Of a stretch of DNA of 64,000 bases, positions 12,116-45,315 are shown piece after piece; position 1 is the first letter of the stretch, and each line of letters begins with the position of its first letter. A program made the position numbers and the translations under genes. The stretch covers positions 32,523 to 96,522 of the forward strand of contig FR899775.1 in NCBI GenBank assembly GCA_000437355.1. The letters are read 5' to 3'. Origin of the DNA: Firmicutes bacterium CAG:460. Lineage in GTDB: Bacteria > Bacillota_I > Bacilli_A > RF39 > UBA660. The notes beneath the pieces are model-generated. The model was not told the origin of the DNA, did not search any database, and saw only the letters and a program-made list of their open reading frames with translations.

Positions 12116-12119
12116 CTTA

Positions 12120-20416: not shown

Positions 20417-21793
20417 TTAAAATTCGCATGAACCTGGTGTTCTTGGATATGGAATAACATCGCGAATATTTTCAATACCTGTTAGATACATAATTAGTCT
20501 TTCAAATCCCATACCAAATCCAGAATGGATACATCCACCATATCTTCTTAAATTTACATACCATTCAATACTTTCTTCTTCTACACCTAGTTCTTTCATT
20601 CTAGCTAGTAAAACATCTAATTTTTCTTCTCTTTGAGAACCACCGATAAGTTCACCAGCTCCAGGAACTTCTAAGTCTACACCAGCAACAGTTTTACCAT
20701 CTTCATTTAATTTCATGTAGTATGCTTTAATTCCAGCTGGCCAATTTTTAACAAATACCGGAACATTAAAATGATTTGTTAACCATCTTTCGTGTTCTTT
20801 AGCTATATCTTCTTCATAACTTGGTTCAAATTCCCATTTTTCACCGCTATTTTTAAGTAAATCAATTACATCTTTGTGGTCAATTCTAACAAAAGTACTA
20901 TTTACTACTTTTTCTAATTTTTCTTTTAATCCTTTTTCTACAAATTTATCAAAGAATTCTATTTCATCTGGACATGTATCTAAAACATATTTAACAATGT
21001 ATTTTAAGAAATCTTCTTCAATATCCATTAAATCATTTATATCTGCAAAAGCAATTTCAGGTTCAATCATCCAAAATTCATTTGCATGTGTTTTAGTGTT
21101 TGAGTTTTCGCATCTAAATGTTGGTCCAAAAGTATAAATTTTACTAAATGATAAAGCAAATGTTTCCCCATGTAATTGTCCTGAACCTGTAATAAATGTC
21201 TTTTTATTAAATAAATCTTTACTAAAATCAACTTTACCATCTTTTTTAGGTAGATTATCAAAATCAAATGTTGTTACTTTAAACATTTGGTCAGAACCTT
21301 CACAATCGGCAGTTGTTAAAAGTGGTGTATGTACATAAATATAGTTTCTATCTTGAAAATATTTATGTATTGCATAAGCAGCTACACTTCTTACTCTAAA
21401 TACTGCTTGAAATGTATTAGCTCTTGGTCTAAGATAAGCTATACTTCTTAAAAATTCCATACTATGTTTTTTAGGTTGCAAAGGATAATCTTCTGGACAA
21501 TCACCTAAAAGTTCAATAGATTTTGCTTTTAATTCATAATCTTGTCCACTACCTTCAGATTTAACAAAATCCCCAACTACTTTAATACTTGAACCATTAT
21601 GTAATTTAGTTAATTCACTAAAATCTTTAAGTTCATTTGTATAAACTACTTGTAGATGTTTAAAACTTGTACCATCCGAAAAATCTATAAACCCAAACTC
21701 TTTTTGAGGTCTATGATTTCTAATCCAACCACTGACTTCTATTTCTTTATCTAAATATTTTTCACTATCTTTTTGTAATTCTTTAATTGTCAT
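20417..21793 (-). CDS. asnS: Asparagine--tRNA ligase
   Basis: Class IIb aminoacyl-tRNA synthetase with an N-terminal OB fold. The C-terminus GFGMGFERLIMYLTGIENIRDVIPYPRTPGSCEF is diagnostic for AsnRS. Confidence 0.95.
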   Translation of the reverse strand: MTIKELQKDSEKYLDKEIEVSGWIRNHRPQKEFGFIDFSDGTSFKHLQVVYTNELKDFSELTKLHNGSSIKVVGDFVKSEGSGQDYELKAKSIELLGDCPEDYPLQPKKHSMEFLRSIAYLRPRANTFQAVFRVRSVAAYAIHKYFQDRNYIYVHTPLLTTADCEGSDQMFKVTTFDFDNLPKKDGKVDFSKDLFNKKTFITGSGQLHGETFALSFSKIYTFGPTFRCENSNTKTHANEFWMIEPEIAFADINDLMDIEEDFLKYIVKYVLDTCPDEIEFFDKFVEKGLKEKLEKVVNSTFVRIDHKDVIDLLKNSGEKWEFEPSYEEDIAKEHERWLTNHFNVPVFVKNWPAGIKAYYMKLNEDGKTVAGVDLEVPGAGELIGGSQREEKLDVLLARMKELGVEEESIEWYVNLRRYGGCIHSGFGMGFERLIMYLTGIENIRDVIPYPRTPGSCEF

Positions 21794-22833
21794 TTTACTT
21801 CCCTCTTTCTTTTTAAATTACTACTTAATATTTCAATAAAATCTTCTTTTTTATAACTATCTTTAAACTGCATTTTTAAATTAATTCCTGCTAGTTTATA
21901 TTGATTAATTAAATCTTCAAAATCATTATTTTCTCCCATTAAGGAGATATTAATACTTCTACTTATATTAATTCCTAATGTATACATAGCCATTAATGCT
22001 TCTAAAAAATCATTCATATTACTTAAAATATAATTTTTTACTTTATTAAATTCGTTAGTATTTTCTTTAAAATCACTAACACTTTTCCACCAATTTAACA
22101 AAATATTTTCATTTTTTCCAATACCAAAATTTAACCATTCTTCTATATATGCACGTTCTTCAAAGCCATAAAATTCATTTTCTATATCAGCATGAGTATT
22201 ACTTAATTCTTCTTCTAAAGATAATATAAATACATTCTTCATTGCATGATATTCACTATTTAATTCTATTTTAACATTTCTAACTATAGTCATTAACTTA
22301 TCTAAATCTGCATCAACACTACCTCTTTTAAAAGAACTTCTAATACCAGCAATAATGTTTATATTTAAAAATTCCATGATAAATAAAGCATCCATTACAT
22401 CTTCACATCTATTTTTTATTAAACTTAAAAACATTTCATATTCTAAAGTATCTTTCTTAAATAAATTCATTTTATTAACAAATTTAATTAATAAATTTTC
22501 TAAATAACTATTATCTATTGCAACATTATCTTTATATTTATTAGCATTATCTCCTAAAAATAAATATCTCATTAACTCTAAATCTTCATCTGATGAAAAA
22601 TAATTAGACATATACTTATTTAGTTTTCCCTTTTTACTTGCATTTATAATATTTGTACTATCTTTTCCTAAGCAATAAAGAAATGATACAACATCCAAGG
22701 CTCTTTTACTATTTTTTAAAACATATTTAATAATACTTTTTCTTACTTCATTGTTATATGTTACTTCGTTATTGTAAAGTATCCAATTTATAACTATTTT
22801 ATTTATATAATCCATATTAACCTCTCTATACAT
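21790..22833 (-). CDS. Hypothetical protein (347 aa) with three internal repeats
   Basis: Its stop overlaps the asnS start by 4 nt. Three repeats are visible by eye: ALDVVSFLYCLGKDSTNIINASKKG, VMDALFIMEFLNINIIAGIRSSFKRG and FLEALMAMYTLGINISRSINISLMG. It ends in NLKRKREVK. Confidence 0.55.
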   Translation of the reverse strand: MYREVNMDYINKIVINWILYNNEVTYNNEVRKSIIKYVLKNSKRALDVVSFLYCLGKDSTNIINASKKGKLNKYMSNYFSSDEDLELMRYLFLGDNANKYKDNVAIDNSYLENLLIKFVNKMNLFKKDTLEYEMFLSLIKNRCEDVMDALFIMEFLNINIIAGIRSSFKRGSVDADLDKLMTIVRNVKIELNSEYHAMKNVFILSLEEELSNTHADIENEFYGFEERAYIEEWLNFGIGKNENILLNWWKSVSDFKENTNEFNKVKNYILSNMNDFLEALMAMYTLGINISRSINISLMGENNDFEDLINQYKLAGINLKMQFKDSYKKEDFIEILSSNLKRKREVK

Positions 22834-23530
22834 TACCTAATATATATTCTAAAACATCTGCTTCATCTATTTTTATTACTTCTTCAGTATAATTATCTTT
22901 TATACTAATAATTCCTTTATTTAAGTCTTCTTCATCTAATAAAATATTAAACTTACTATTTACTTTTTCATTTATAACACAATTTATATTATTAATTCTT
23001 AAATCTTGAGCTATTTTTAAAGCATGATAGCTTTCTTCTTCACTAACACCAATAACACTAACATCAATATTTACATCTAAGGCATTATCTCTGATAATAT
23101 TCATTACAGCATTAATTAAAATTTCTATATTTATTTTAACAGTTATTTCATTACTATTTTTACTACCAACACCTAAAATAGCATCTTCATACATATATGA
23201 CCAACTTAAGATATCACTATCATCATTAATGTAATATATTTCTAGCATATCAAGAATATCATTCATTTCATTATCTTTATTTATAAGTATTTCTACATTT
23301 TCTAAACCCATTCTTTTAAATAGGTTATATCCAAGACTTATTACTTCAGCATCACTTATTTTATCAAGAGAATTTTTTACATGTATTTCTATATTTTTTA
23401 AATCATTAGTATAATATTTATTAGCATTAGTTTCTCCAATAACAAACTCATAATTGTAATTATCCATATGTTGATTTAATATTTCTATTAAATAATTATA
23501 TAATCTTGCTTTCTTACCACTTAATATCAT
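22826..23530 (-). CDS. Degenerate histidyl-tRNA-synthetase-like (HisZ-like) protein
   Basis: SDAEVISLGYNLFKRMGLENVEILIN resembles the HisRS DAEVI...LGL.n..l.iN segment. The C-terminus (IDVSVIGVSEEESYHALKIAQDLRINNINCVIN...DEEDLNKGIISIKDNYTEEVIKID) resembles a class II anticodon-binding domain. At about 235 aa it is too short for a full catalytic core. ATG 23530 lies 9 nt after AAAGGA. Confidence 0.45.
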   Translation of the reverse strand: MILSGKKARLYNYLIEILNQHMDNYNYEFVIGETNANKYYTNDLKNIEIHVKNSLDKISDAEVISLGYNLFKRMGLENVEILINKDNEMNDILDMLEIYYINDDSDILSWSYMYEDAILGVGSKNSNEITVKINIEILINAVMNIIRDNALDVNIDVSVIGVSEEESYHALKIAQDLRINNINCVINEKVNSKFNILLDEEDLNKGIISIKDNYTEEVIKIDEADVLEYILGNV

Positions 23531-23713
23531 AAATATCAGTCCTTTCAATTACTCTTTATTTTACCATATTTAAAAAGGAAATAGAATACTATTTCCCAAA
23601 ATTTTACAAAAATAATGATTAAATTATTGAAATTTTAATATTTAAATAGTTTTCATAAACCAAGAGCATCAAAATAAAATAACATATCTTTTTATATTAA
23701 AAAGAAAGTATTT

Positions 23714-24436
23714 CTACTTTCCTTCATTAGTCTTAAGCCAAAGCATAAAATCATCTAATAAATCATACTCTGTATCTTTATAATTATCATATACATATTT
23801 TAAAATATCTATAACATTAGCATCTTTATTATCTAGTGTTACAACTCTAATATCTTTCGTAGCAACATATCTTCCTCTGAAAGTAGACATATTCCATGAA
23901 TCCATCATTTTGCTATCAAAATTACTATATTCACCATATATTTCTTTCATAATTAAATAATCTGTTGAATCTTCATCATGATTAAATTTTGTTTTTATTT
24001 CATCATATTCTAATCTATTATAATCACAACCATTTGATACATTTAATACCATATAACAATATTCTAGCATATCATGGTAATATTTTGTAAAAACAATATT
24101 TTTTCTATAATCATCTTTTTTATATTCTTTAGTTATAAAAGTTCTATTCCATTCATAAATTTTAGTTTTCTTTAAATTATCATCATATTTATTTTCAATA
24201 GCTTTCTTACCAAAGATTTCATTCATTCTCCATTTTAAATAGACATCATGGAACTTTAATATACCACTTACACCGGTAGAAAAATATATTCTTCTTGTTT
24301 CTTTAAGTAAAGCACTACAATCTGCTTGCTTACTTGTTAAATTGTCTTTTTCAATTCTTCCTAAATTACTTATTTGATTAAAATGGAAATATGCTCTTGA
24401 TAATTCTAAATCTTGTAAATCAACCCTTCTTAACAT
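23714..24436 (-). CDS. Hypothetical protein (240 aa)
   Basis: Long ORF 11 nt downstream of aspS. No recognisable motif. Confidence 0.5.
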   Translation of the reverse strand: MLRRVDLQDLELSRAYFHFNQISNLGRIEKDNLTSKQADCSALLKETRRIYFSTGVSGILKFHDVYLKWRMNEIFGKKAIENKYDDNLKKTKIYEWNRTFITKEYKKDDYRKNIVFTKYYHDMLEYCYMVLNVSNGCDYNRLEYDEIKTKFNHDEDSTDYLIMKEIYGEYSNFDSKMMDSWNMSTFRGRYVATKDIRVVTLDNKDANVIDILKYVYDNYKDTEYDLLDDFMLWLKTNEGK

Positions 24437-24447: not shown

Positions 24448-26187
24448 TTATATATCTAGTTTAATATGAGCTTCTTTTAATTGTTCTGGGAAAGCTTCAC
24501 TAGGACAACCCATCATAGCATCAGCTCCGTTTGCACCGATTGGGAATGGTACTATTTCTCTGATATTTTCTTCATCTTTTAATAACATAATAATTCTATC
24601 AATACCAGGAGCCATACCAGCATGTGGAGGTGCTCCATATTTAAATGCTTCATATAAACTTGGGAATTTACTTCTTACAATATCTTCACCATAACCAACA
24701 AGTTCAAAGGCTTTTTTAAGTATTTCTGGAGAATGATTACGAACTCCACCAGAAGCCATTTCATAACCATTACAAACAAAGTCATATTGGAACGCTTCAA
24801 TTTCAAATGGATTTTTATTATTTAGGGCATCTAACCCACCTTTTGGCATACTAAATGGATTGTGTGAAAATTCAATTGCTCCAGTTTCTTCGTTTTCTTC
24901 ATAGAATGGAAAATCATTTATAATACAAAATTCATATCTATTTTTATCAATTAGGTCTAGCTCTTGACCTAATTTAGTACGCAGATTACCCATTATTCTT
25001 GCACATCTGTTTTTATCTGCAACAATAAATAAGGCATCATTTTCATGTAAATTCATTTTTTCAATTAATTCATTCTTTACTTCATCACTCATAAACTTAG
25101 TTAAAGATGATTTTAATTCCATACCTTCCTTTACTTGAATATAACCTAAATTACCATGAATTCCTTTTACATACTCTTCCATAGATTTATACCATGAATT
25201 AGATTTTTCAATATTTTCTACTTTAATACATCTAACAACAGTATCTTTAAATGGTGCAAAATCACTTTTACCCATTATATCAGATATATCTTCAATTATT
25301 AATGGATTTCTTAAGTCTGGTTTATCACTACCATATTTTAATATTGCATCTTTAAATTTAATTCTTCTAAAAGGTGCTGGACTTACATATTTGTCACTAA
25401 ATGTACTAAATACATCATAAAATACTTTTTCACCAACTTTATAAACATCTTCATCAGTTGCAAAACTCATTTCAAAGTCAAGTTGATAAAATTCACCATA
25501 CAATCTATCACTTCTTGGGTCTTCATCTCTAAAACATGGTGCTATTTGGAAATATTTATTAAATCCAGATACCATTAATAATTGTTTAAAGATTTGTGGT
25601 GATTGAGGAAGGGCATAAAACTTACCTGCAAATTTTCTTGATGGAATTATAAAGTCTCTAGCTCCTTCTGGACTTGTTGCTGTAATAATTGGTGTTTGCA
25701 CTTCTAAAAAGTCCATTTCTTTCATTGTTTTTCTTAAGAAATCCATAATCTTACTTCTAAATATAATATTATCATGAACTTCTTTATTTCTTAAATCTAG
25801 ATAACGATATTTAAGTCTTGTATCTTCATTAGATTCTTTAGATTTATTAATTTCAAGTGGTAAAACATTTATACAATCCCCAAGAACTTCAAGCGTCTCA
25901 AGTCTAACTTCAATTTCTCCAGTTTTCATGTTTTTGTTAACCATATCTGGCGTTCTAGCCTCAACTACCCCAGTAATTGTAACTGTTGCTTCACGATGTA
26001 AATTTTTATATTTTTCTACATCTTCAGATATTAATTGCACAATACCTGTTTCATCTCTTAGCGTAATAAATACTAAATTACCAAGATTTCTAATACTATT
26101 AACCCATCCTGCTAACCTAATATTTTTACCAATATATGAAGAATTTACTTCTCCACAATAAATATCTCTGTACATATTTTCTTTCAT
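24448..26187 (-). CDS. aspS: Aspartate--tRNA ligase
   Basis: 579-aa bacterial-type AspRS with an N-terminal OB fold, FYALPQSPQIFKQLLM, FRDEDPRSDR and GMAPGIDRIIMLL motifs. RBS GGAGGAG lies upstream. Confidence 0.95.
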   Translation of the reverse strand: MKENMYRDIYCGEVNSSYIGKNIRLAGWVNSIRNLGNLVFITLRDETGIVQLISEDVEKYKNLHREATVTITGVVEARTPDMVNKNMKTGEIEVRLETLEVLGDCINVLPLEINKSKESNEDTRLKYRYLDLRNKEVHDNIIFRSKIMDFLRKTMKEMDFLEVQTPIITATSPEGARDFIIPSRKFAGKFYALPQSPQIFKQLLMVSGFNKYFQIAPCFRDEDPRSDRLYGEFYQLDFEMSFATDEDVYKVGEKVFYDVFSTFSDKYVSPAPFRRIKFKDAILKYGSDKPDLRNPLIIEDISDIMGKSDFAPFKDTVVRCIKVENIEKSNSWYKSMEEYVKGIHGNLGYIQVKEGMELKSSLTKFMSDEVKNELIEKMNLHENDALFIVADKNRCARIMGNLRTKLGQELDLIDKNRYEFCIINDFPFYEENEETGAIEFSHNPFSMPKGGLDALNNKNPFEIEAFQYDFVCNGYEMASGGVRNHSPEILKKAFELVGYGEDIVRSKFPSLYEAFKYGAPPHAGMAPGIDRIIMLLKDEENIREIVPFPIGANGADAMMGCPSEAFPEQLKEAHIKLDI

Positions 26188-26420
26188 ATTTTTTACTCCT
26201 CCATAAATATAAAAAATTCTATAAATTAATTTAGCTTAAGGACGAGTATAACCCGCGGTGCCACCTTAATTCATAGAATTCTATGCATCTTAATTTGCTA
26301 TATCGGGCTTACCCGTTTACTTTCAAGGTACTATCTTCAATAACTTAAGTTACTAGTTTTCACCATCCACTAGTTCTCTATAAACTATCAGTTACCTACT
26401 GGTTTACCAAATAAATCATA
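26188..26420 (-). promoter_or_regulatory. T-box leader with an Asp (GAU) specifier, upstream of aspS
   Basis: On the minus strand:
- an AGAGA box (26379-26375);
- a distal hairpin ACUAG...CUAGU;
- a specifier-loop context AGUA ... GAA-GAU-A, with GAU at 26335-26333;
- the canonical T-box sequence AAUUAAGGUGGCACCGCGGG (26271-26252);
- an antiterminator-like fold AAGG[UGGCACC]GCGGG-UUAUA-CUCGU-CCUU. Confidence 0.8.
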
Positions 26421-26425: not shown

Positions 26426-26454
26426 AATATACTACTTTTTTAATCATTTGTCTA
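26426..26454 (-). promoter_or_regulatory. Putative promoter of the T-box-aspS unit
   Basis: On the minus strand: TAGACA (26454-26449), a 17-nt spacer, then TATATT (26431-26426). Confidence 0.4.
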
Positions 26455-26460
26455 GATATT

Positions 26461-27156
26461 TTATTTATTTTTCTCACGTTTTAACTTTATATCTTCTTCT
26501 CTTTCAAAGAAACTATTATAGATTTTATCATAAAGCATTTGTTCATCTTTATATTTTCTAGCAGCAAAATCACAAATATAAGGGATTTCAATCGAAATAT
26601 CACTATATTTTGCAACAATTACATTTGCATCCTTTAAAATCGAAACAATAATTATATTTTCATAAAAATACAACAATGTTGCATCACTTGATGTTTCTTT
26701 TACGGAACAACGCTTTCCATAAAAATATGCTTGTTTTAAATATTCTGTAAACTTACGATATTTTTCATAAAATTTATAACTAGACATATAGAATGTCTCT
26801 GTTGGTTCCGTACCATTGTTGCTTTTCTTTAAATAAGATACAAAATTACCAACTATGCCATTTTTTAAAACAATTTCAGGAACCTCATCTTCAGAAACTT
26901 TAGCTGATATATATAATTCATATTTATAATCTTCATGTATTTCGTCTTTACCTATAAATGTTAAACTTCCAAGAGTCCCTAAAACCTTTTCATCTTCAGT
27001 ACCCAATTGAACAGCTTTTAATATAACCATAGCTTTATTAAATGTTTGCAAGGCATTATTAATTTCTTCTAAATCGGTTGATTGCAATTCCATCAATCTA
27101 TTTTTTAGTTTATCTACCAACATTTTATAAATGTCTCTGTACATATTTTCCTTCAT
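26461..27156 (-). CDS. Hypothetical protein (231 aa), a paralog of the C-terminal half of the J-domain protein with an aspS-derived N-terminus
   Basis: AVQLGTEDEKVLGTLGSLTF...IVLKNGIVGNFVSYLKK matches AVQFGTEDEKVLGILGNLAF...IVLKKGEVGNFVSFLKK in the 481-aa protein. Its first 10 codons (MKENMYRDIY) match those of aspS at 28 of 30 nt. Confidence 0.65.
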   Translation of the reverse strand: MKENMYRDIYKMLVDKLKNRLMELQSTDLEEINNALQTFNKAMVILKAVQLGTEDEKVLGTLGSLTFIGKDEIHEDYKYELYISAKVSEDEVPEIVLKNGIVGNFVSYLKKSNNGTEPTETFYMSSYKFYEKYRKFTEYLKQAYFYGKRCSVKETSSDATLLYFYENIIIVSILKDANVIVAKYSDISIEIPYICDFAARKYKDEQMLYDKIYNSFFEREEDIKLKREKNK

Positions 27157-27192
27157 TTTCTCTCTTCTTTCTTTGTTTTTTGTCTAGATATT

Positions 27193-28638
27193 TTATTTAT
27201 TCTTTTCTCTTTTTAATATATTATTTTCATTATTTTTAAACTTTATTTCTTTTTTGCTATTAAAGAAACTATTATAAATTCTATCATATAACGCTTGCTT
27301 ATCTTTATATGTTCTACTAGCAGTATCCGTTGCATGAGTATTTAATGAATGGAATTCATTAAAACTCACTAGTAATATTTTATCATTTTCTGTTAAAAGA
27401 ATATAACAACCAGTATTTTCATAATAATATAATGCTGTAGTTATAAATTTTGTATTTAAATATTGAATATAACCTTTATCACCTAAGAAATTCAAATCTT
27501 TTAAAACATCTTTAAAATTATTATATTTTTTATAAAACCCTTCTTTAGTCATAAAAACTTCTTCTGCCATGCCAGATGGGAACTTCTTTAAAAAAGATAC
27601 AAAATTTCCTACTTCACCCTTTTTCAAAACAATCTCAGTTTCTTCATTATCAGAAAAATTGGCTGTAATATATAATTCATATTCACTTTCTTTAAGCTCA
27701 TCATCATTTGTAAAAGCTAAATTACCAAGAATACCTAAAACTTTTTCATCTTCAGTACCAAATTGAACGGCTTTTAATTTAGTCATAGCTCTATTAAATA
27801 CATTCATAGCGATATCAATATCTTCTGTATCTGTTGGTTTTAACTTCATCATTCTTTTGTTAAAGTTGTTCATTATTGCTTTATAAGTATCCCACATTTT
27901 ATTATTTAATTCTTCATCTTTTAAAATTCTTGTCTTTATTTCAGCTTGTAATTTATATATACCATCATCTAATGTAATTTTTTTATCAATAATTTCTTTA
28001 ATTATTATTTCTTTTACATCAAAAATCTCTTCTAATATTTTACTATTAACATTTTTATCTTTAAACATAGATAATATAATTTGATTTAAGCTTTTATCAA
28101 TTTTTTCATATTTTCTTCTAATTTCATTTACTTCTTTTACATAATCATCAAAAGAACAATCATCATTAATTGGTTCAAAGTTGCTTATCCAAAATTCAGG
28201 TACATTTTTTAATATTTCATTTCTATAACTTTCAAATAAATCTTTTATAGCACCATTAGTAATATAATATTTAAAATCTATTAGTTCTATTAGTTGTATT
28301 GTTTTTTCTAAAGTAAAAGTTTTAATGACATTATCAATTGCATTTGCATATTTAAATTCTAATGTATCAGGCAAATAAACTGTTTTACTAGTATAAAATT
28401 TTAATTTCTCCTTTAAGTCATTATACTTCTTCATGAGTTCATCATTAACAGTACTTTTACTTGACACTTTATGACTTTTTAATACTTCATATGCAGAATT
28501 AATCTTCTTCATCATCTCTTCATCCCCATTTAAATCCGGATGATATTTTTTAGATAATTTCAAAAATCTTTTCTTTAATTCTTCTTTTGTAAAATTACCT
28601 GTAAATCCAAATAACTTTAATGCTTCATTATAATTCAC
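27193..28638 (-). CDS. J-domain protein with a long uncharacterised C-terminal region (481 aa)
   Basis: The N-terminus NYNEALKLFGF...ELKKRFLKLSKKYHPDLNGDEEMMKKINSAYEVLKS is a J domain with the HPD motif. There is no G/F or zinc-finger region. The start is GTG, 7 nt after GGAGGA. Confidence 0.8.
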   Translation of the reverse strand: MNYNEALKLFGFTGNFTKEELKKRFLKLSKKYHPDLNGDEEMMKKINSAYEVLKSHKVSSKSTVNDELMKKYNDLKEKLKFYTSKTVYLPDTLEFKYANAIDNVIKTFTLEKTIQLIELIDFKYYITNGAIKDLFESYRNEILKNVPEFWISNFEPINDDCSFDDYVKEVNEIRRKYEKIDKSLNQIILSMFKDKNVNSKILEEIFDVKEIIIKEIIDKKITLDDGIYKLQAEIKTRILKDEELNNKMWDTYKAIMNNFNKRMMKLKPTDTEDIDIAMNVFNRAMTKLKAVQFGTEDEKVLGILGNLAFTNDDELKESEYELYITANFSDNEETEIVLKKGEVGNFVSFLKKFPSGMAEEVFMTKEGFYKKYNNFKDVLKDLNFLGDKGYIQYLNTKFITTALYYYENTGCYILLTENDKILLVSFNEFHSLNTHATDTASRTYKDKQALYDRIYNSFFNSKKEIKFKNNENNILKREKNK

Positions 28639-28652
28639 GATTTATCCTCCAT

Positions 28653-29963
28653 TTAAATTTTTTCTCTTTTTAAAACAACATTTTTATTACTTTTATTAAT
28701 TGCTCTTTTAGCATCAAGATAATCTACAGCTTTATTAATTATACTTATTTCACTAGAGTTTAGTAAATCATCATCTAAAGGCATTCCAATCATACTAGCA
28801 AATTTTAATAAATATTTTTTATCAATTTTTCCTGAAGTTAACAAATCATATAAACTAATATAATTTCTAATGAATGTTGATCTATGAAATTCAAATGTTT
28901 CTTCTCCAAATGGTGTAAAACCTGTACAATAAAGTCTACTATTAGCATAACCAGTTTTAAGCAAGATAGTTTCACCATCGTATTTTTCTTTTATTTTAAC
29001 AAAAACATTTTTCGTTTTAGATTGAACTATATCATATATTTCTTCGACATTTTCAAACTTAATACTTGTAAGAGTTCTTAAAATATCTCTACTTTCTTGA
29101 CCTTTTAATACTCTTTTTAATATTTCCTTTATCATTTCAAGCATTTTATTGGCAACATCTATTTTACTTAAATCATTTTTACCTGATGAATTTATTCTAG
29201 TATTATAATTTTCTTTAATTAAAGCTAAACTAGAAAAAACATCACTTTTTCTTGATTGAAATTTTTCTAAAGATAAATTCATACCAAAAACTAATGAATC
29301 TAAATACGCATAGCGACCTTCCCAAAGAGCTAGACTAATATTGTTTAGAAAAATTATTAATGAATCTGGGGCACAATCTCCGATTATATTTTCTAACTTT
29401 GAAACTGTTTCACAATATACTTGATGTTTATTCATCATAGTTGCTAAATTCTTTAACATTTTATTTATTTCATTTACATTTTTATTAAAATCTATAGAAC
29501 TATCAATTTCAATTAATTTACGTTTTATTTCATCAACAAAATTAATTATTACTAAATTATTTTCTTTTCCTTCAGTTAATTCTTGTATTCTTTTTTCTGT
29601 TTTAAATACTAAATGTCTATTTCTAACATAAACTTTTATTATTTCATGCACTTGGTTAACAAATGTATCAAAATTACAATCAAAATTTAAATCAATATAT
29701 GCCGTTATTTTATGACTTGCAAATATTTCATTAGCATATTCTTTGAACTTTATTTTTAAATTATTTATTAAAATATTATATTCCTCATCTAATTTATTTT
29801 TATCTTCAAAAAAATCAAAACCATCAATTAATCTATTAATAGATGTTGCATATTTTTCTTCTAAGGAACCATTTAAATATTTTCTATTACCCCTTATTTT
29901 CATTAAATTATTTACTAAACATTCATAATGTTTATATAATGTAAATCTTTCATTATCACTCAT
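28653..29963 (-). CDS. Hypothetical protein (about 436 aa), a J-less paralog of the 481-aa protein
   Basis: By-eye alignment to the post-J region of the neighbour gives three matching segments:
- LEEKYATSINRLI with LEFKYANAIDNVI;
- NFDCNFDTFVNQVHEI with INDDCSFDDYVKEVNEI;
- the C-terminal VVLKREKI with ILKREKNK.
ATG 29963 lies 7 nt after AAGGAG. Confidence 0.65.
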   Translation of the reverse strand: MSDNERFTLYKHYECLVNNLMKIRGNRKYLNGSLEEKYATSINRLIDGFDFFEDKNKLDEEYNILINNLKIKFKEYANEIFASHKITAYIDLNFDCNFDTFVNQVHEIIKVYVRNRHLVFKTEKRIQELTEGKENNLVIINFVDEIKRKLIEIDSSIDFNKNVNEINKMLKNLATMMNKHQVYCETVSKLENIIGDCAPDSLIIFLNNISLALWEGRYAYLDSLVFGMNLSLEKFQSRKSDVFSSLALIKENYNTRINSSGKNDLSKIDVANKMLEMIKEILKRVLKGQESRDILRTLTSIKFENVEEIYDIVQSKTKNVFVKIKEKYDGETILLKTGYANSRLYCTGFTPFGEETFEFHRSTFIRNYISLYDLLTSGKIDKKYLLKFASMIGMPLDDDLLNSSEISIINKAVDYLDAKRAINKSNKNVVLKREKI

Positions 29964-29975
29964 AACCATTCTCCT

Positions 29976-31415
29976 TTACTTAACTTTCTTCCTTGGAACT
30001 GATGTTTCAATTACTAAATTTCCATCTAGAACCATTTTATTTCTATCTTCAGCATTTTTCATTAGTTCTTTTAATTCTTCAATATACTTTTTATTTAAAT
30101 GATATCTATTTATATCTAAGTTAAAACCTTCATTTATAGAGTGAACTCCAATAATTAGATATGTATCAAAAGCTATTTTACAAAAACTAATTGATAGATT
30201 AGAACCATTTATAAATAGTAATTCTCCAGCTTTTAAGTTTCCATCTAAAACTGTACGATGATTATTACCACTTTTAACTTTTTCAAGTAATAAATCTATT
30301 TTACTTTTTAAACTATTATCAACATTATCTAAGTCTTCTTTAAAATAGCAATTACCTTTAATATCATTTAAGAAAACAACTTCTGGTTTTCTAATCTTTT
30401 TATCTATATGAAACATATTTAATAATATTTTTAATTTATTAATGGCATCATTTATTATTTCATCAAAATATTCTTTATCTTCATCATTATATAATTCTTC
30501 AAGACTTTGAATATCTAATAAAGCTTCCATGTAATAATCATAATCACTTCTGCCAACAAGAGAACTTATAAGGTTACATGCCATAAGATATATTTCTTTA
30601 TCTTCATCAGTTAAAAAACTTAATTTTTCTGTTTCTACTATAATTGGGTCAAGAGCTTCTTTTCTTACCTCAGACTTCTTTTCTTTTTTCATTTCAGGTT
30701 TCACTTCTCTTTTTATAGCAGTTTTTAAATATTCTTCATAACTACTTCTTAATTCAATCATTAATTTGTTAGATAAAGAAGTATACTTTATTAATTTTAA
30801 TTCATCATTATTTATACCAAGTTCTTTTAGCCTTGTAGCTTTACTTAATTGATTAAATAAAATCATAAATAATTCAGCATCTCCACCATTTTGAAAATTA
30901 CCATAAATATCAAAATAATTACTTAGTGGTCGTAAACTTTCAAAATCACATTTCCATAAATCTTCAGGAGTTTTATTTTCACCAGTTTTCTTACCTTTAA
31001 AGGAAATGGCACTGCCAAAGATTTTAATAGCTTCTTTGTTTGTTAGGTAATTTTTACCAATTATTGATATTAGTGTTACATAAAATAGTGGAAAGTCTTC
31101 AATTGCACCGATAGCTTTTTCATTATCAAAAGCCCTAATTTGGCTATCACATATATAAATTTGTGTATTTAACATTCCAATATGTTTTTTTAGTCTTTCT
31201 TTAGCACTTTTAATATCATATTTTGTTAAATCTCCAAGAGCTTCTTTTAAAATATTTGTTAATTCATTTGATTTAGTGTCTTTTAGCATTTCAACATACT
31301 TTTGAAAATCTAATGGCCAAAGTTCTAACATATTTACAATATTTTTATAACCTTGCAAATCACTAATCATATTACTTTTAACATTTTTCATATATTTTTT
31401 AAATTTAATAAACAT
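29976..31415 (-). CDS. Hypothetical protein (479 aa), first gene of the operon
   Basis: Long ORF with RBS GGGGGA 5 nt before the ATG and a promoter directly upstream. It has a charged low-complexity linker (EVKPEMKKEKKSEVRKE) and no recognisable domain. Confidence 0.6.
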   Translation of the reverse strand: MFIKFKKYMKNVKSNMISDLQGYKNIVNMLELWPLDFQKYVEMLKDTKSNELTNILKEALGDLTKYDIKSAKERLKKHIGMLNTQIYICDSQIRAFDNEKAIGAIEDFPLFYVTLISIIGKNYLTNKEAIKIFGSAISFKGKKTGENKTPEDLWKCDFESLRPLSNYFDIYGNFQNGGDAELFMILFNQLSKATRLKELGINNDELKLIKYTSLSNKLMIELRSSYEEYLKTAIKREVKPEMKKEKKSEVRKEALDPIIVETEKLSFLTDEDKEIYLMACNLISSLVGRSDYDYYMEALLDIQSLEELYNDEDKEYFDEIINDAINKLKILLNMFHIDKKIRKPEVVFLNDIKGNCYFKEDLDNVDNSLKSKIDLLLEKVKSGNNHRTVLDGNLKAGELLFINGSNLSISFCKIAFDTYLIIGVHSINEGFNLDINRYHLNKKYIEELKELMKNAEDRNKMVLDGNLVIETSVPRKKVK

Positions 31416-31444
31416 ATATATCCCCCTTAAACAAGTGTTTTTCT

Positions 31445-31473
31445 ATCTTACCACAAAATGCCTGATTTTGCAA
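31445..31473 (-). promoter_or_regulatory. Promoter of the 479/438/481/231-aa operon
   Basis: On the minus strand: TTGCAA (31473-31468), a 17-nt spacer, then TGgTAAGAT (-10 at 31450-31445). Confidence 0.55.
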
Positions 31474-31480
31474 GAAAATA

Positions 31481-31509
31481 TTGACTTCTATTAGGAATTA
31501 TCCTATAAT
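31481..31509 (+). promoter_or_regulatory. Promoter of the 964-aa gene
   Basis: TTGACT (31481-31486), a 17-nt spacer, then TATAAT (31504-31509). RBS GGAGGGGG (31523-31530) follows, then ATG 31536. Confidence 0.65.
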
Positions 31510-31535
31510 AAAAACTACTTTAGGAGGGGGTACTC

Positions 31536-34430
31536 ATGAGTTTATTTTTTAAGTTTTTCAAAAAATCTAAATTAAACCAAGAGGTTTTATGTCTTGTTAA
31601 CTTACAAGATAGTATTATCATGCCTCCGAATAGTTTTTTTGACAACGTTAAAAATAAAGAACTTTGTGAACAATATTATCAAGAATATAAAAGAATTTTA
31701 TCTAATAAAAAGACAATATTAAGTACTCATTTAAAATCAATAGAAACTGATGATATCAGAGTTTACATAGATATTTTAACTAGTTTAGAAATACATATTC
31801 ATGATATTTTAAGTAATTCAAATAGCAAAGGATATAACTATGAATATGTAACCAATTTACTTGCAAGACTCAATGGTTATGCTCACATTTTAAAGGCTAT
31901 CGAAGAAGAATCTTTTTTAAGAATGGCAGCTTTATCAAGTCTTAAATCTATTCCATTTTTATCTAATAACAAAAAGAATGCTATAGATAATGAAATATCT
32001 AGATTACAAATTCAAATATTTAATGCGCAGAAAGATATTGAATTAATAAATTTACAAACTAACTCATGTTTTTCAATAATAGAAAATTCAAATTTAGAAA
32101 AAGATCCTAAATATTATAATGATTTACGTGGAAGACTTATTGGTTATATTTCTACATTTATACCTGATTCATTAAAAGAATATATAGAAAATTATCAAGA
32201 TAAAAATTATCTTACATTAATGCAAATAAAGTTAGAAGTATTACTTTTTAAAAACAAAAATATATTAAAAGATTTGGAAAATGAATTTGATAATCTTTTG
32301 GAATTTACACATTTAGACAGAATTACAAGAATACACTCTATAAATAGATTAATTACTAAATATATGGCAATCAAAGAATATAAAAGAATTGAAAACAAAG
32401 AACTTCTTTATAAACTTGTAGAATACAAAGTAAATTCTTGCGAAATAGATTATGGTAACTATAGAGAAATTTTACATGACTATGCAAGGTCTAAAGAAGA
32501 AAAAGAAATTATGAAAGAAGTATTCTTTGAAAAAGTAAGCACTTTTATGCAAAGTAATGGTGTTTTTGAAGAATATAAAAAATTTGATTTTTCAAAAAGA
32601 GATTATAGAATATTAGCTAACTTAATAAATAATGCTGTAAAAAATGAATATGGTGTTTTTGATTATGGTAGAATATTATGTTCTCCAGAACTAACAATGT
32701 TATTATTTTCTATTAATAATCCTTATAAAATGAAAGAATTTTTCCAAAACTATCAAGTAAGTAATTGCACATATCTTGCAGCTACATCATTAAAAAGAAA
32801 TATGTTTGAATTTGAAGAATATATTCCACTTGAAACAGTGATGCAATTAACTGAGGTGTTTTTAAAAAATCCCCATCATAAAGATAGAATATTAAAAGAT
32901 AAAGAACTTTATGATTTATATAAGATATATGATTGCTTATTATATTCTGTAATAAAGCCCAAATCCCCATCTCACGTTTTTGAAAATGTTTCAAAAATTA
33001 CAATTACTGGTCAAAATATTTTATTTTATCCAGAATTAATAAAAATTTATAACAAAGAAATGGCGCAAGGAAGAAAGTTAGTATTTCCTAAATCATTAAA
33101 AAAGCTAACTATTAGAGTAGATAACTATGATAGAGAATTTTTAAAATTTTACGAATTTGAACTAAATGAAGGGCTTGAAGATTTATCTATTTTAGAAACA
33201 CATACCTATGCAACACCACCAAAAGTATTAGAGTTACCTTCTACTCTTGAACACTGTGAGATAACTATAAGGCCAGAAACTATAAGATTTAGAGATTATA
33301 CAAATTCACAATTATTAGTAAGCGAAATAAGATTTAAAAATTTTTTGAAAAATTTAATGCATGCCCAAAGATTATTAACACCCAATGAATTACCACTAAT
33401 TAAAACTATTGAATTCAAAGGAAAATCATCTATTACAACTTTTAGTCTTAATATTAGAAAACTTGTATTTGGTCGTAAATTTGAACGTGAAACAATATAT
33501 AATGATTTTCAAAATAAAGTAAAAGAAATGTACGAAAAACTATATGAAGTAGTTCAAGCATTTGAGTTAGAAATTCCTAAAGAAGAAGCAAATTTTGATA
33601 ATTTAAAAAAACTAGAAGATGAATTATATAATTATGTACAATCACAATACAAAGAAATAACAAGTTTTGATATAATGATGGAAACAGATATACTTGCAGC
33701 AAAATATGATAAATATACAAGAGATGCAGAAGCAGACAAAGATAAACTATTAAAAGAAATGAATAATAAAATTTTAAAATTAAGATATATTATTGAAACG
33801 TTATCAATTTACACAAATACTGAAGATGCAATTGAAGATTTTAAATCACTTTTAACAATAAAGTTTAAATTATTAATTAGTATTCTTCCTGAGTCAAGTA
33901 AACCACTTATTGATGAAGATACTCCAAAAGATGAAGTAGAATTATTTAAAGATTTATTAATTGATTATTTGAAAAATTTTGTAATTTATATTTATAAAGA
34001 TAAAGAATTATCAAAAAAAATAGAAGAAATAATTGAAAAATATCGTGGAGACTATAGTTATTTTGAATACTTATTAAGAAATCCATTTTTATTAAAGTTA
34101 AAATTGTCAATTGAAGACCCAAATTATCATGATACCATGTTAGATGTGTTTAAAAAACATAAAGTAAAAACACCTAAAGAAATAATTGATAAGGTGAAAA
34201 ACAAAAATCAAGAAGATTGTATTTCTTATCTTCAATTGATGAAAATTATTATAAAAATTGAAAACATATCTACTCCATCAGAAAGTAATTTTACTTTTAA
34301 TCCCTATCTTGATGATTTATCTCTTATATATAAAAGAGCTAAATCTAAGCTATATAATTATAATTTTGTAGAATATGAAACATTTGAACTTGATGCTAGT
34401 GAAAGCCAAAAATTAATTAGGAAAAAATAA
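31536..34430 (+). CDS. Large hypothetical protein (964 aa)
   Basis: Uninterrupted ORF with a strong promoter and RBS. It looks mostly helical and K/E/N-rich. The central stretch (LVFPKSLKKLTIRV..., VLELPSTLEHCEITI..., LPLIKTIEFKG...) is faintly leucine-rich-repeat-like. It has no P-loop, TM segment or signal peptide. Confidence 0.7.
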   Translation: MSLFFKFFKKSKLNQEVLCLVNLQDSIIMPPNSFFDNVKNKELCEQYYQEYKRILSNKKTILSTHLKSIETDDIRVYIDILTSLEIHIHDILSNSNSKGYNYEYVTNLLARLNGYAHILKAIEEESFLRMAALSSLKSIPFLSNNKKNAIDNEISRLQIQIFNAQKDIELINLQTNSCFSIIENSNLEKDPKYYNDLRGRLIGYISTFIPDSLKEYIENYQDKNYLTLMQIKLEVLLFKNKNILKDLENEFDNLLEFTHLDRITRIHSINRLITKYMAIKEYKRIENKELLYKLVEYKVNSCEIDYGNYREILHDYARSKEEKEIMKEVFFEKVSTFMQSNGVFEEYKKFDFSKRDYRILANLINNAVKNEYGVFDYGRILCSPELTMLLFSINNPYKMKEFFQNYQVSNCTYLAATSLKRNMFEFEEYIPLETVMQLTEVFLKNPHHKDRILKDKELYDLYKIYDCLLYSVIKPKSPSHVFENVSKITITGQNILFYPELIKIYNKEMAQGRKLVFPKSLKKLTIRVDNYDREFLKFYEFELNEGLEDLSILETHTYATPPKVLELPSTLEHCEITIRPETIRFRDYTNSQLLVSEIRFKNFLKNLMHAQRLLTPNELPLIKTIEFKGKSSITTFSLNIRKLVFGRKFERETIYNDFQNKVKEMYEKLYEVVQAFELEIPKEEANFDNLKKLEDELYNYVQSQYKEITSFDIMMETDILAAKYDKYTRDAEADKDKLLKEMNNKILKLRYIIETLSIYTNTEDAIEDFKSLLTIKFKLLISILPESSKPLIDEDTPKDEVELFKDLLIDYLKNFVIYIYKDKELSKKIEEIIEKYRGDYSYFEYLLRNPFLLKLKLSIEDPNYHDTMLDVFKKHKVKTPKEIIDKVKNKNQEDCISYLQLMKIIIKIENISTPSESNFTFNPYLDDLSLIYKRAKSKLYNYNFVEYETFELDASESQKLIRKK

Positions 34431-35038: not shown

Positions 35039-35473
35039 TTAAAACTCCATTATTAAAGTTATTGGACCATCATTAGAAATGTTAACCATCATTTCTGCTC
35101 CGAAAATACCTGGTTTAGTTACAACATACTTATTCATTTCTTCATTAAATGTTTCGTATAACTTAATTGCTTCTTCACCATTTAAGGCTTTCATATATGA
35201 AGGTCTATTTCCTTTGGTGGTATCTCCATATAAAGTAAATTGTGATATTGATAATATTTCTCCACCAACATCTAGGATTGATTTATTCATAATGCCTTCT
35301 TCATCATCAAATATTCTTAAATTAGCTATCTTTTTAGTCATTTTTAAAATATTATCAATTGTATCCCCTTGGGTAAAAGAAACCAATAAAACCATGCCAT
35401 TATCTATTTCATTTACTATCTTTTCTGAAACACTAACACTACTTTTTTTACTTCTTTGTACTACTACTTTCAC
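35039..35473 (-). CDS. dtd: D-aminoacyl-tRNA deacylase
   Basis: MKVVVQRSKKSSVSV..., SQFTLYGDTTKGNRPSY and the C-terminal NDGPITLIMEF. Confidence 0.9.
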   Translation of the reverse strand: MKVVVQRSKKSSVSVSEKIVNEIDNGMVLLVSFTQGDTIDNILKMTKKIANLRIFDDEEGIMNKSILDVGGEILSISQFTLYGDTTKGNRPSYMKALNGEEAIKLYETFNEEMNKYVVTKPGIFGAEMMVNISNDGPITLIMEF

Positions 35474-37599
35474 TACATTTCCTCCTTAACATCTATAACA
35501 TTATGTATTTTTCTAATACTTTTCATTACATTATCTAGTTCTTCTTTATCTTTTATTCTTATATTTAATTCATACATTGTTTTATTGTCAAATTCTTTTG
35601 TATTACAAGACCTTACAATACAACCAAGTTTACCTACTTCTGTAATAATATTTACTAGTAAATCAAAACCTGATGCAACATAAACATAAATATTAGTAAA
35701 GTAATAATTACTTGCATCCATATTCCATGATACATCTACTACTCTTTCACTATTATTTGGGACATTTGCACAACCTTTTTTGTGAACACTTATCCCTTGA
35801 CCTTTTGTAATAAATCCAACTATTTCATCACCTTTAATTGGCATACAGCATTTAGCAATATTAACCATGATATTAGAGTTTCCTTCAACTAAAATATCGC
35901 TCTTATAATTGATTTTAGGTATAGATAATTTTCTTTCAAATAAAGCATCATCTACTTCATGTCTATCTTCTTTGGTTAAATTAATAATATAACCTGCCGT
36001 AAATCTTAGTGAACCAATACTTAAATAAATCTCATCTAAATCTTTAACTTTTAAATCTTTAATTAATTTATCAATTACTTCTGGAGTTAAAACTTCATTA
36101 AAAGCCATCTTACGTTTTCTAAGTTCGGTTTCTAAAATGTTTTTACCTTTTAAAATATATTCTTCTTTGTCTTGTTTACTGAAGAAAGCCTTAATTTTGT
36201 TTCTTGCTTGATTAGTTTTAACAAATGGAAGCCAGTCTTTATTCGGTGTACTATTATTATTTGTTTTAATATTTACAACATCATCGTTTTTAAGTTCATA
36301 TGAAAGTGGCACAATTTGGTCATTTACGATTGCTCCAACAGTGGTGTCTCCAACTCTAGAATGAATTCGATAAGCAAAATCAACTGGAGTTGACCCAATT
36401 GGTAACTCAACAACATCGCCTTTCGGTGTATAAGTATAGATTAAATCGCTGAAAATATCTGCATTAACAGCATTTTCAAAATCAGCATCAGTATCATTAT
36501 TACTTGATTCAATAACATTTCTAAACATTTCTAATTTTTGTTCCATCACATTTTGAATCTTTTTAGTACCTTTTTCTTTATAAGACCAGTGACTTGCAAT
36601 ACCTTTTTCAGCAATTTCATCCATTTCATAGGTTCTTACTTGAATTTCAAAAACATGTCCTTCAACCCCAAAAACAGTGGTATGCAAACTTTGATACATA
36701 TTTTCTTTTGGACTTGCTATATAATCTTTAAATCTCTTTGGCATTGGTCTAAATCTAGAATGTATTAAACCAATAACTTGATAACAATCAGATTCTTCTT
36801 CTACAAATATTCTTAAAGCTAAGATATCATATATTTTATTCCATTCTTTTCCATTAGATAATTTATTATAAATACTATAAACGCTTTTAACTCTACCTTT
36901 TATTTCAAATTTAATACCAGCTTCGGTTAAAATATCTATAATACTTTCTTTCATTTCTTCTAAACAATCATTTAATTCATCAACTGTTTCATTTAATTTT
37001 TCAAGTATATCATTGTAAACATCTGGTTTTAAATAATAAAGTGATAAGTTTTCTAACTCACTTTTAATAGAATTAATGCCTAAACGATGAGCAATTGGTA
37101 CTAAAACAGACATTGTTTCTTCAGCTTTTTGCTTTTGTTTAGATGGATTAATTGCCCAGTTGGTACGCATGTTATGTAATCTATCAGCAAGTTTAATATA
37201 CATAACTCGAACATCTTGGGCAAGTCCAACTAATATTTTTCTTAAATATATAACACTAGATTCATTATTATCAGGTAACTCTAACTTATTAATTTTAGAC
37301 ACACTTAAAACAATCTTAGCTATATCTTTTCCAAAATCATTAACTAAATCTTCATATGTTTTATTACCATTATTGATAACTTCATGTAAAAGTGATGCAA
37401 TAATGGTAGTATCATCAACATTTAAATCCATAAGAATTTTTGTAACTTCTAAAGGATGAGTTATAAAATCATCTCCAGTAAGTCGTTTCATTCCCTTATG
37501 TTCATTATAGGCATATTCATATGCTTTTTTTATTGTTTCAAATTGTTCCCTTTTTTCTAATCTTGGAACTAATTCTTCAAAATTAATTGTATCTGGCAA
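35473..37599 (-). CDS. relA: Bifunctional (p)ppGpp synthetase/hydrolase (RelA/SpoT homolog)
   Basis: HD domain (HPLEV...LLHEVI), synthetase domain (YQSLHTTV), and TGS and ACT regions. The start was taken as TTG 37599, 5 nt after GGAAGGTGG. The tracked ORF extends 15 codons further upstream. Confidence 0.9.
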   Translation of the reverse strand: MPDTINFEELVPRLEKREQFETIKKAYEYAYNEHKGMKRLTGDDFITHPLEVTKILMDLNVDDTTIIASLLHEVINNGNKTYEDLVNDFGKDIAKIVLSVSKINKLELPDNNESSVIYLRKILVGLAQDVRVMYIKLADRLHNMRTNWAINPSKQKQKAEETMSVLVPIAHRLGINSIKSELENLSLYYLKPDVYNDILEKLNETVDELNDCLEEMKESIIDILTEAGIKFEIKGRVKSVYSIYNKLSNGKEWNKIYDILALRIFVEEESDCYQVIGLIHSRFRPMPKRFKDYIASPKENMYQSLHTTVFGVEGHVFEIQVRTYEMDEIAEKGIASHWSYKEKGTKKIQNVMEQKLEMFRNVIESSNNDTDADFENAVNADIFSDLIYTYTPKGDVVELPIGSTPVDFAYRIHSRVGDTTVGAIVNDQIVPLSYELKNDDVVNIKTNNNSTPNKDWLPFVKTNQARNKIKAFFSKQDKEEYILKGKNILETELRKRKMAFNEVLTPEVIDKLIKDLKVKDLDEIYLSIGSLRFTAGYIINLTKEDRHEVDDALFERKLSIPKINYKSDILVEGNSNIMVNIAKCCMPIKGDEIVGFITKGQGISVHKKGCANVPNNSERVVDVSWNMDASNYYFTNIYVYVASGFDLLVNIITEVGKLGCIVRSCNTKEFDNKTMYELNIRIKDKEELDNVMKSIRKIHNVIDVKEEM

Positions 37600-43996: not shown

Positions 43997-44215
43997 CGAA
44001 ATTCAAGTATCTGTGTTACCTCACGGTAACACTTTTCTGTTTCACAGAAACCTTTGGTTTCTCCACAGACCAACTTCGGATGGTCGCCACCCTACTTATT
44101 TTTATTTATTTTGTTCTTATTTATATTAAATAACTTTTCATATATATTTTCAATCCCTCAAACATTATATTTATACTTGCATTTATATCTCTATCATGTA
44201 TCATTCCACATTTTG
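43976..44215 (-). ncRNA. Putative omega-RNA (reRNA) scaffold at the tnpB 3' end / right end
   Basis: The region is GC-enriched and structured on the minus strand, with hairpins GAAACC-uaa/aaa-GGUUUC and GUUACC-guga-GGUAAC. Its position overlaps the tnpB stop, as expected for TnpB guide RNAs. The boundaries are not defined. Confidence 0.4.
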
Positions 44216-44573
44216 GACATGCCCATTTTCTTACACTTAAATCTTTTAATTCTTCATTTTTATAATCACATCTATTACAACATTGACTACTTGGGTAATA
44301 TTTATTTATTTCAATTACTTTTTTACCTAACCAATTTGATTTATATTTTAAGACTCGTATAAATTCACTGATTGGTAAGTTTTTTAAGTGTTTTGCTATT
44401 TTATGGACTTGATACATACTTTTAATATCTAATGTTTCTACTGCTACAATGTCATTTTCCTTCAAAATATTATTTGCAAGCTTATATATCATATGTTTTC
44501 TGGCATTTCTAATCTTTAAATACAATCTTTGTATTTTTAATTTTACTTTATATCTATTCTTACTTCCGTCCAT
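44121..44573 (-). pseudogene. tnpB: tnpB fragment (C-terminal part, includes the true stop)
   Basis: ...AVETLDIKSM...CCNRCDYKNEELKDLSVRKWACPKCGMIHDRDINASINIMFEGLKIY. Confidence 0.75.
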
Positions 44574-45240: not shown

Positions 45241-45315
45241 ACTTCAACAAGGATGCTTACAAAATACTTGTTAGCATCTTTGCTAATTGTTGCTGATTTT
45301 ATTTTACCTACAATT

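Follow-up and report, generated by a model that had tools for sequence, protein, structure and literature searches.

The window analysed here, a stretch of 64,000 nucleotides from Firmicutes bacterium CAG:460, contains a block of five genes in the interval between dtd and aspS, four of which (encoding g479, g438, g481J and g231) lie on the minus strand and the fifth of which (encoding g964) is divergently oriented (Table 1). We regard it as firm that the block exists as described, evolves under relaxed but still purifying selection, lies on the chromosome, is restricted to a single clade and can be dispensed with. Equally firm, on the level of a predicted fold, is the assignment of g481J as a specialised J-domain protein of a new architecture, in which helices and two putative Tudor/SH3-like barrels come after the J domain. 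Our favoured, and still tentative, reading of the locus is that of a dispensable, lineage-restricted accessory module coupled to DnaK (Hsp70), with an accessory role that is possibly conflict-related (phage, mobile elements or host) and not one in core cell structure. The five open reading frames (ORFs) and the gaps of 6, 14 and 36 nt among the minus-strand genes, in the order g479, g438, g481J and g231, are exactly as listed in a first-pass annotation of the same DNA, which had proposed a J-domain protein with two J-less paralogues and no other recognisable motif.

The J domain of g481J matched PF00226 over residues 12-56 (1.4e-10, 41.6 bits compared to a cutoff of 27.8), and its HPD motif is retained by all J-bearing members of the family. 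A search of the PDB with a profile of the J family returned J domains only. Since the Pfam families DnaJ_C and DnaJ_CXXCXGXG (zinc finger) were not matched in g481J, the protein is assigned to class C. A canonical class-A DnaJ with J domain, zinc finger and C-terminal domains is also encoded in the window (1259-2440, plus strand) and g481J is therefore an extra, specialised J protein. The gene of the class-A protein adjoins a PmbA/TldD-type peptidase gene (34-1308) and not dnaK. J domains with an HPD motif stimulate ATP hydrolysis by DnaK, and from the intact HPD J domain we infer that g481J works with this chaperone.

An AlphaFold2 model of g481J was computed from a 25-sequence alignment drawn from an exhaustive search. 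It had a mean predicted local distance difference test score (pLDDT) of 86.5 and consisted of the J domain (residues 1-56), a long helical region (residues 61-305), a beta-rich domain (residues 321-431) and a C-terminal helix. When compared to the PDB by Foldseek, the beta-rich domain matched tandem Agenet/Tudor domains such as those of ADCP1, SETDB1, 53BP1 and FMRP with probabilities of 0.9-1.0 and E-values of 0.018-0.3, and single Tudor domains of PHF1 were matched by the predicted fold with a target-normalised TM score (TMt) of about 0.8. The domain may resemble the tandem Tudor/Agenet domains of the Royal family in its predicted fold (TMt up to 0.8, E 0.018 or higher), but it differs from these readers in being bacterial, in lacking a link to chromatin and in lacking a sequence-profile match, as no Tudor/Agenet profile of Pfam was matched in g481J at an E-value of 1 or less. 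Small SH3-type barrels are known to recur by convergence. No structure in the PDB or BFVD matched g481J over its full length.

Both J-less proteins proved to be paralogues of g481J. The similarity of g438 amounts to approximately 28-32% identity across the aligned segments, one of which corresponds to residues 68-177 of g481J (32% identity, E 5e-6) and is accompanied by a second segment. The relationship of g231 is much closer, with 44% identity to residues 246-481 (E 6e-46), and extends to the DNA, where positions 26432-27135 (g231 plus 3' flank) form a direct repeat, 72-78% identical, of positions 27164-27891 (the 3' half of g481J). In addition, the first ten codons of g231 equal those of aspS (28 of the 30 nt of the coding start; 91% identity over the 33-nt repeat D6), and the duplicated flank includes the -35 element (TAGACA) of the aspS promoter. 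To judge from these repeats, g231 is a recent partial tandem duplicate of residues 246-481 of g481J fused to the first ten codons of aspS, in agreement with the proposal that the 5' end of aspS had been duplicated into the block and marks a rearrangement there. The simplest history would be a tandem duplication reaching from the middle of g481J to codon 10 of aspS, after which the extra T-box leader was lost.

Scans of the block proteins with Pfam, NCBIfam, PADLOC and PHROGs yielded no domain other than the J domain. No Walker A pattern was found in them and no NACHT, NB-ARC or AAA match in Pfam, and the SecB, RelE, HigB and antitoxin profiles of Pfam and NCBIfam gave no match. Hydrophobic segments, signal peptides and transmembrane segments were likewise not detected in the block proteins (maximal Kyte-Doolittle mean over 19 residues of 1.7 or less). 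Neither g479 nor g964 gave a match in profile searches of the PDB, and profile-profile comparison revealed no homology among g479, the g964 family and the J family. A tblastn search of the block against 50,697 phage and 72,556 plasmid records produced no match, a scan of IMG/VR was negative, and in the literature we found no counterpart described for a bacterial J-Tudor module or for a J-domain protein in defence of this kind. Together with the searches of hidden Markov model libraries and the PDB, these results bear out the earlier suggestion of a lineage-specific block without any described family. An origin of the block from a prophage or plasmid was rejected based on the lack of phage or plasmid homologues and the housekeeping genes in the flanks.

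The narrow distribution was also evident from searches for relatives. Scanning one genome per species from 185,579 species with two peptide patterns from g964 led to confirmed relatives at 5 loci, all of them in uncultured Bacilli or 'Tenericutes' metagenome-assembled genomes. The profile of the J-less family, run exhaustively with HMMER against 1.84 billion representative sequences, had 36 matches, all of which were family members or fragments. Searches with g964 and g479 returned 345-468 clusters at 90% identity (345-351 for g964), and there was no Pfam domain or name among the 120 best-listed matches per search. A first search for homologues of g964 had retrieved only sequences of 86% identity or more, which were of no use for a deep alignment.

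The gene order was mapped in 22 related loci. The usual arrangement is relA-dtd-gtrA, followed by zero to four divergent copies of g964, g479, one or two pairs of g438-type and J-type genes, in some cases g231, and finally T-box aspS-d240a-d240b-d347-asnS, and in every relative examined the block occupied the interval between dtd and aspS, as had been described for the window. Homologues of g479 (36-97% identity) were present in every locus covering the region, and g438-type genes had a J-bearing paralogue as partner throughout the lineages. g479, g438-type and J-type genes co-occurred in every locus covering the region with the exception of L016. The putative operon remained attached to aspS even where relA and dtd are not adjacent. 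This was the case in the distant lineage L012/L013 (aspS 91% identical), in which the order is J486-J488-g438-like-g479-like-J444 and g964 is absent. In the divergent position held by g964 elsewhere, these two loci carry a Fic-like gene (PF02661, 3.5e-7; L012 3888-4889, minus strand), the product of which has the motif QVFEDGNTR, in which the catalytic histidine is replaced by glutamine, and the C-terminal tail LLKRKKK. An IS605 OrfB/TnpB gene adjoins the Fic-like gene of L012. A still more distant member of the J family was found in L011, where it stands alone in another context.

The remaining genes were less constant. The copy number of g964 ranged from 0 to 4, with the copies being tandem and mosaic, and the gene was lost or truncated at least three times: as a remnant of 141 N-terminal residues in L006/L007, by an internal deletion of residues 143-928 in L017 (1574-2017) and by a frameshift in L016. 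In L016, recombination between the 3' ends of g438 and g481J, both of which code for LKREK, has also eliminated the whole g481J gene (5230-5345); the contigs of L016 and L017 are short and of low coverage. g231 is limited to a subset of the strains most closely related to that of the window; L001 and the more distant lineages lack it. The invariant unit is therefore g479 plus the J-less and J-bearing paralogues, and the idea that all five genes travel together stands for g479, the g438-type and the J-type genes, whereas it does not for g231, for g964 or, in L016, for the J gene itself.

Evolutionary rates were determined by comparing the window with the related loci L001 and L002. The ratio of nonsynonymous to synonymous divergence (dN/dS) of the block genes was 0.23-0.62, compared to 0.02-0.07 for aspS, dtd, relA and gtrA, with one flank value of 0.21. 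The synonymous divergence (dS) of the block was 0.06-0.27, compared to 0.27-0.63 for aspS and relA (about 0.6 for relA) and 0.7-0.86 for d240a, d240b and d347. This lower synonymous divergence suggests that the block may have been exchanged or recombined recently between related species, although AT-biased codon usage may also lower the dS of the block.

In the g964 family, a constant N-terminal domain and a second near-invariant stretch (residues ~262-310) are combined with an otherwise variable remainder. In codons 10-190 of the paralogues, the proportion of nonsynonymous differences (pN) was mostly 0.08-0.16 and far below that of synonymous differences (pS, 0.29-0.58), which argues for purifying selection. 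We rejected gene conversion alone as the explanation for the constant N-terminus, since synonymous sites have diverged, but domain swaps do occur. One pair of paralogues from different species has identical N-termini (pS = 0) and a pS of 0.59 in the rest of the gene, which points to domain shuffling, and two orthologues of 1200 residues conversely have identical C-terminal parts and diverged N-termini. The paralogues in tandem abut or overlap each other with no immunity-sized ORFs between the copies. A module that by eye looks like a leucine-rich repeat (LRR) is doubled in the paralogues of 1110-1200 residues; at an E-value of 1 or less, Pfam reported no LRR family in g964 or the longer paralogues. 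Profile scans for LXG, trafficking and toxin domains in g964 and the paralogues of 947-1200 residues were negative. A polymorphic-toxin reading of the family was rejected as there is neither a toxin domain nor an immunity gene.

A feature common to all five block proteins is a basic C-terminal tail of the pattern [LIVM]-x(0,1)-R-[KE]-K (Table 1), which was seen in 0 of 51 other ORFs of at least 120 residues in the window. Over all loci, the strict pattern was present at 24 of 64 distinct C-termini of the families compared to 0 of 107 other ORFs, and looser variants (LIRKI, LTRKR, LKRNK and LQRKL) were noted in further family members. Related tails outside the block are those of the above Fic-like protein of L012 and of d347 (LKRKREVK or LKRERR).

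Based on these observations, the tentatively favoured DnaK-coupled module may be pictured as follows. The genes from g479 through the J family would be transcribed as one operon ending just upstream of T-box-aspS. The HPD J domain of g481J would stimulate ATP hydrolysis by DnaK, and the helices and two barrels of the predicted fold would be the partner-binding part, which, together with the J-less paralogues, presumably binds the co-encoded proteins. g438 and g231 would keep helical and barrel parts and serve either as co-adaptors or as competitors, with the co-encoded proteins as clients or partners that are perhaps addressed via the L-x-R-[KE]-K tail. The g964-type proteins would be optional, with the constant N-terminal domain docking and the variable, recombining remainder conferring differing specificities. 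A bolder version, which we consider rather unlikely, is that the locus represents a new kind of Hsp70-coupled intracellular recognition system, in which g964-type proteins would be interchangeable sensors or effectors, each with a constant docking domain and a recombining variable region, the J-bearing and J-less Tudor-barrel proteins and g479 the platform and the tail a chaperone-addiction-like address that subjects the g964-type proteins to DnaK; these would be released or activated when the chaperone network is perturbed, e.g. by phage.

Several results weigh against this reading of the block. The window contains no gene for DnaK, effector-type domains (nuclease, NTPase, TIR or protease) were not found in the block, and the matches to PADLOC-DB v2 were weak (E 0.004 or higher, 15 bits or less). 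The block is not located in a defence island, is not adjoined by mobile-element genes and has a fixed place between housekeeping genes. The E-values of the Tudor-like matches are modest (0.018 or higher). The AlphaFold2 model of g479 (20 sequences) was poor, with a pLDDT of 53.7, and Foldseek retrieved nothing significant with it, RelE/HigB-type structures (HigB/PfiT) being among the top matches at E-values of 1.3 or higher. These non-significant matches are the sole support for a possible likeness, noted by eye, of the g479 C-terminus to RelE/Gp49. The tail motif was defined post hoc and basic tails evolve easily in AT-rich genomes, so we treat it as a lead and not as a result. Finally, L016 retains g479, g438 and g231 without a J gene, and either the J domain is not indispensable or this copy of the module is decaying.

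Comparison with known systems revealed partial likeness only. Nearest are specialised class-C J proteins such as HscB, DjlA, CbpA, phage Rki and Mycoplasma TopJ/MG200, which resemble g481J in that an HPD J domain at the N-terminus precedes a targeting region particular to each family, and which are encoded beyond the canonical DnaJ, next to presumed partners. g481J differs from them by its non-J part, a helical region of approximately 250 residues and two predicted barrels, which matches none of them in sequence, and the block differs from their systems by J-less paralogues and two further orphan families confined to one small clade. In toxin-antitoxin-chaperone (TAC) systems, a chaperone-addiction extension is located at the C-terminus (PMC5105189, PMC6377645), and an antiphage role has been described (bioRxiv 10.1101/2024.02.24.581848). 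Here, the likeness is one of logic only, a dedicated chaperone component being co-encoded with proteins bearing a short C-terminal extension; the TAC chaperone is SecB-like whereas that of the block is a J protein, and the block proteins show no recognisable toxin or antitoxin domain and are 5-10 times larger. Similarly, the bacterial NLR-related defence protein bNACHT25 senses phage via the host DnaJ (PMC12169576) and is comparable by its logic, in which a conflict ties the Hsp40/Hsp70 machinery to a protein whose recognition region varies, but the block is devoid of a NACHT/STAND NTPase or Walker A motif and its J protein is encoded by the module itself. An NLR-like sensor was rejected for lack of an NTPase. 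Polymorphic and LXG toxins as well as phage receptor-binding proteins share with g964 the tandem copies, the near-invariant N-terminus with variable downstream part and the recombinational exchange, whereas g964 differs from the toxins in having no LXG or toxin domain, immunity ORF, phage or plasmid homologue or export signal. Of all systems compared, the block belongs to none except the generic class of J-domain proteins.

The alternative that the block has no joint function, and is a hotspot for the accumulation and decay of orphan genes that are unrelated and under weak constraint, is in our view unlikely. The raised dN/dS, the remnants and deletions, and the presence of three families without detectable mutual homology, with the J domain as sole known domain, are in line with it and would make the block one more lineage-specific orphan cluster. 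However, dN/dS remains well below 1 across 8 kb, and this in genomes with longest contigs of only about 1.2 Mb. In addition, strong purifying selection acts on the constant domain of g964, a rearrangement has not separated g479 from the J family, the genes have operon-like spacing, and the tail is common to unrelated families.

A structural or cytoskeletal assembly, for which the first-pass annotation had left room, would be a helical intracellular scaffold matured by a dedicated J protein in the way of TopJ in the attachment organelle of Mycoplasma; TopJ has been localised to the bowl complex of this organelle in M. pneumoniae (PMC4923136). The strain is a reduced-genome relative of the Mollicutes, one relative being recorded as 'uncultured Tenericutes bacterium', the block proteins are long, helical and rich in lysine and glutamate without enzymatic motifs, and g481J is encoded besides the canonical DnaJ. 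TopJ and MG200 possess, however, an EAGR box and an acidic proline-rich region after the J domain, neither of which was matched by Pfam in g481J, where proline makes up 1.2% of the residues. In addition, there were at least three losses or truncations of g964, and one strain has deleted the J gene; this repeated loss, along with variable copy number, raised dN/dS and very narrow distribution, weakens the structural option to the point where we rate it as rather unlikely. Fast evolution, copy-number change, mosaicism and repeated loss fit better to an accessory, conflict-type role.

Quite improbable is a translation or tRNA proteostasis module with the ribosome or aminoacyl-tRNA synthetases as its target, a role that would account for the permanent linkage to aspS. 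The operon is always located directly upstream of T-box-aspS, whether or not relA and dtd are adjacent, the neighbourhood comprises dtd, relA, aspS, the HisRS-derived ORF, asnS and gatCAB, and there are weak, non-significant RelE/HigB-type matches for the C-terminal part of g479. Moreover, SH3/Tudor-type barrels and basic tails often bind RNA. Yet conserved gene order says little about function when it is confined to a single narrow clade, aspS is served by a promoter and T-box of its own, and the module is, unlike translation factors, dispensable and fast-evolving and gave no match to an RNA-binding family. Very improbable is the delivery of g964-type, Fic-like and J proteins to another cell as exported effectors with the tail as export signal or as a signal like those for nuclear localisation in eukaryotes: J, Fic, LRR-like and Tudor-like modules are typical of effectors, unrelated families including the Fic-like one of L012 have a positively charged C-terminal tail and the genes diversify rapidly, but no signal peptide or transmembrane segment was detected, there are no secretion-system genes in the window or its flanks, and the Fic-like protein lacks the catalytic histidine. 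Surface or secreted proteins were considered unlikely for the same lack of signal peptides and transmembrane segments.

With 8-17 kb, these very small genomes (longest contigs bearing the genes about 1.2 Mb) devote this length to three families without relatives elsewhere. If the J proteins are indeed coupled to DnaK, they would add a new architecture to the few specialised targeting factors of bacterial Hsp70, and the block might be a case of one short C-terminal tail directing unrelated proteins to a common chaperone platform. The g964 array would in that case lend itself to the study of modular specificity in an uncultured but abundant lineage of the human gut.

With regard to expression, the block had been described as strongly promoted, a description that can safely be upheld for g964 only. 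Its predicted promoter (TTGACT-17-TATAAT, 31481-31509, plus strand) agrees with the consensus at 11/12 positions and was the top site of the 9-kb region, while the minus-strand site read from the sequence (TTGCAA-17-TAAGAT with TG extension) agrees at 8/12 only. Promoter-like sites were barely enriched in the 9-kb region (98 found compared to 80 +/- 9 expected), the DNA of which has 22-29% G+C. The G-rich ribosome-binding sites GGAGGGGG and AAGGGGGA in the control region precede g479 and g964. On the other side, the predicted T-box leader of aspS was found in the expected place, with a promoter-like site (TAGACA-17-TATATT, 26454-26426) ahead of aspS.

The flank on the side of g964 consists of a GtrA-like gene, dtd and relA. 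Downstream of aspS, the claim that hisS is missing has to be qualified by d240b, a truncated HisRS-derived ORF, the reading frame of which is conserved in every relative (48-76% identity, dN/dS 0.18-0.24) and which may be a possibly repurposed remnant of the ancestral hisS from a hisS-aspS operon. The orphan gene d347 evolves fast, with 41-42% identity between species whose aspS is 97-99% identical and a dN/dS of 0.55-0.70. Given its LKR[KE]R-type tail, d347 is a possible sixth member of the block system; profile-profile comparison revealed no similarity to the J family.

Table 1 Features of the five-gene block and its surroundings in the window.
Feature	Position	Strand	Residues	Basis and remarks
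g231	26461-27156	-		ORF list; C-terminal end KLKREKNK
g481J	27193-28638	-		ORF list; class-C J-domain protein; C-terminal end ILKREKNK
J domain of g481J	28471-28638	-	1-56	PF00226; HPD motif in KKYHPDLNGD
Beta-rich domain of g481J	27346-27678	-	321-431	Two small predicted Tudor/Agenet/SH3-like barrels (AlphaFold2, Foldseek)
Basic tail of g481J	27196-27255	-	462-481	pLDDT below 50; disordered in the AlphaFold2 model
g438	28653-29969	-		ORF list; J-less paralogue of g481J; C-terminal end VLKREKI
g479	29976-31415	-		ORF list; single-copy orphan protein; C-terminal end VPRKKVK
Divergent control region	31416-31535			120 nt between g479 and g964; back-to-back promoters and two G-rich ribosome-binding sites
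g964	31536-34430	+		ORF list; 964-residue member of an orphan family; C-terminal end KLIRKK
Constant N-terminal domain of g964	31536-32105	+	1-190	Family alignment; nearly identical among paralogues and species
FPKSLK...LELPSTL...IRFRDYTNS module of g964	33063-33455	+	~510-640	LRR-like by eye only; FPKSLK/LPSTL module doubled in longer paralogues
T-box leader of aspS	26235-26416	-		RF00230, 103.6 bits; downstream boundary of the block
aspS	24448-26187	-		Context gene; operon linked to it in all lineages; 90-99% identical across related loci
d240a	23714-24436	-		Orphan always following aspS, as does d347
d240b	22826-23548	-		Truncated HisRS-derived ORF of 240 residues; TIGR00442 1.3e-6, anticodon-binding domain 0.004
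d347	21790-22833	-		Fast-evolving orphan; tail NLKRKREVK in the window, HLKRERRKK and SLKRERRN in relatives

Three further observations were made elsewhere in the window. A 136-residue ORF at 35079-35489 (plus strand), antisense to dtd, is almost certainly spurious. A 6S RNA gene was detected at 11934-12117 (minus strand; RF00013, 54.9 bits). Within 44121-46292 (minus strand), the ORFs at 45389-45886 and 45918-46292 start with the identical 14 residues MNTYKAYKLRIYPT and have shorter overlapping ORFs close by; by eye, the ORFs of this region look like pieces of a duplicated or decayed IS605/TnpB-type element.

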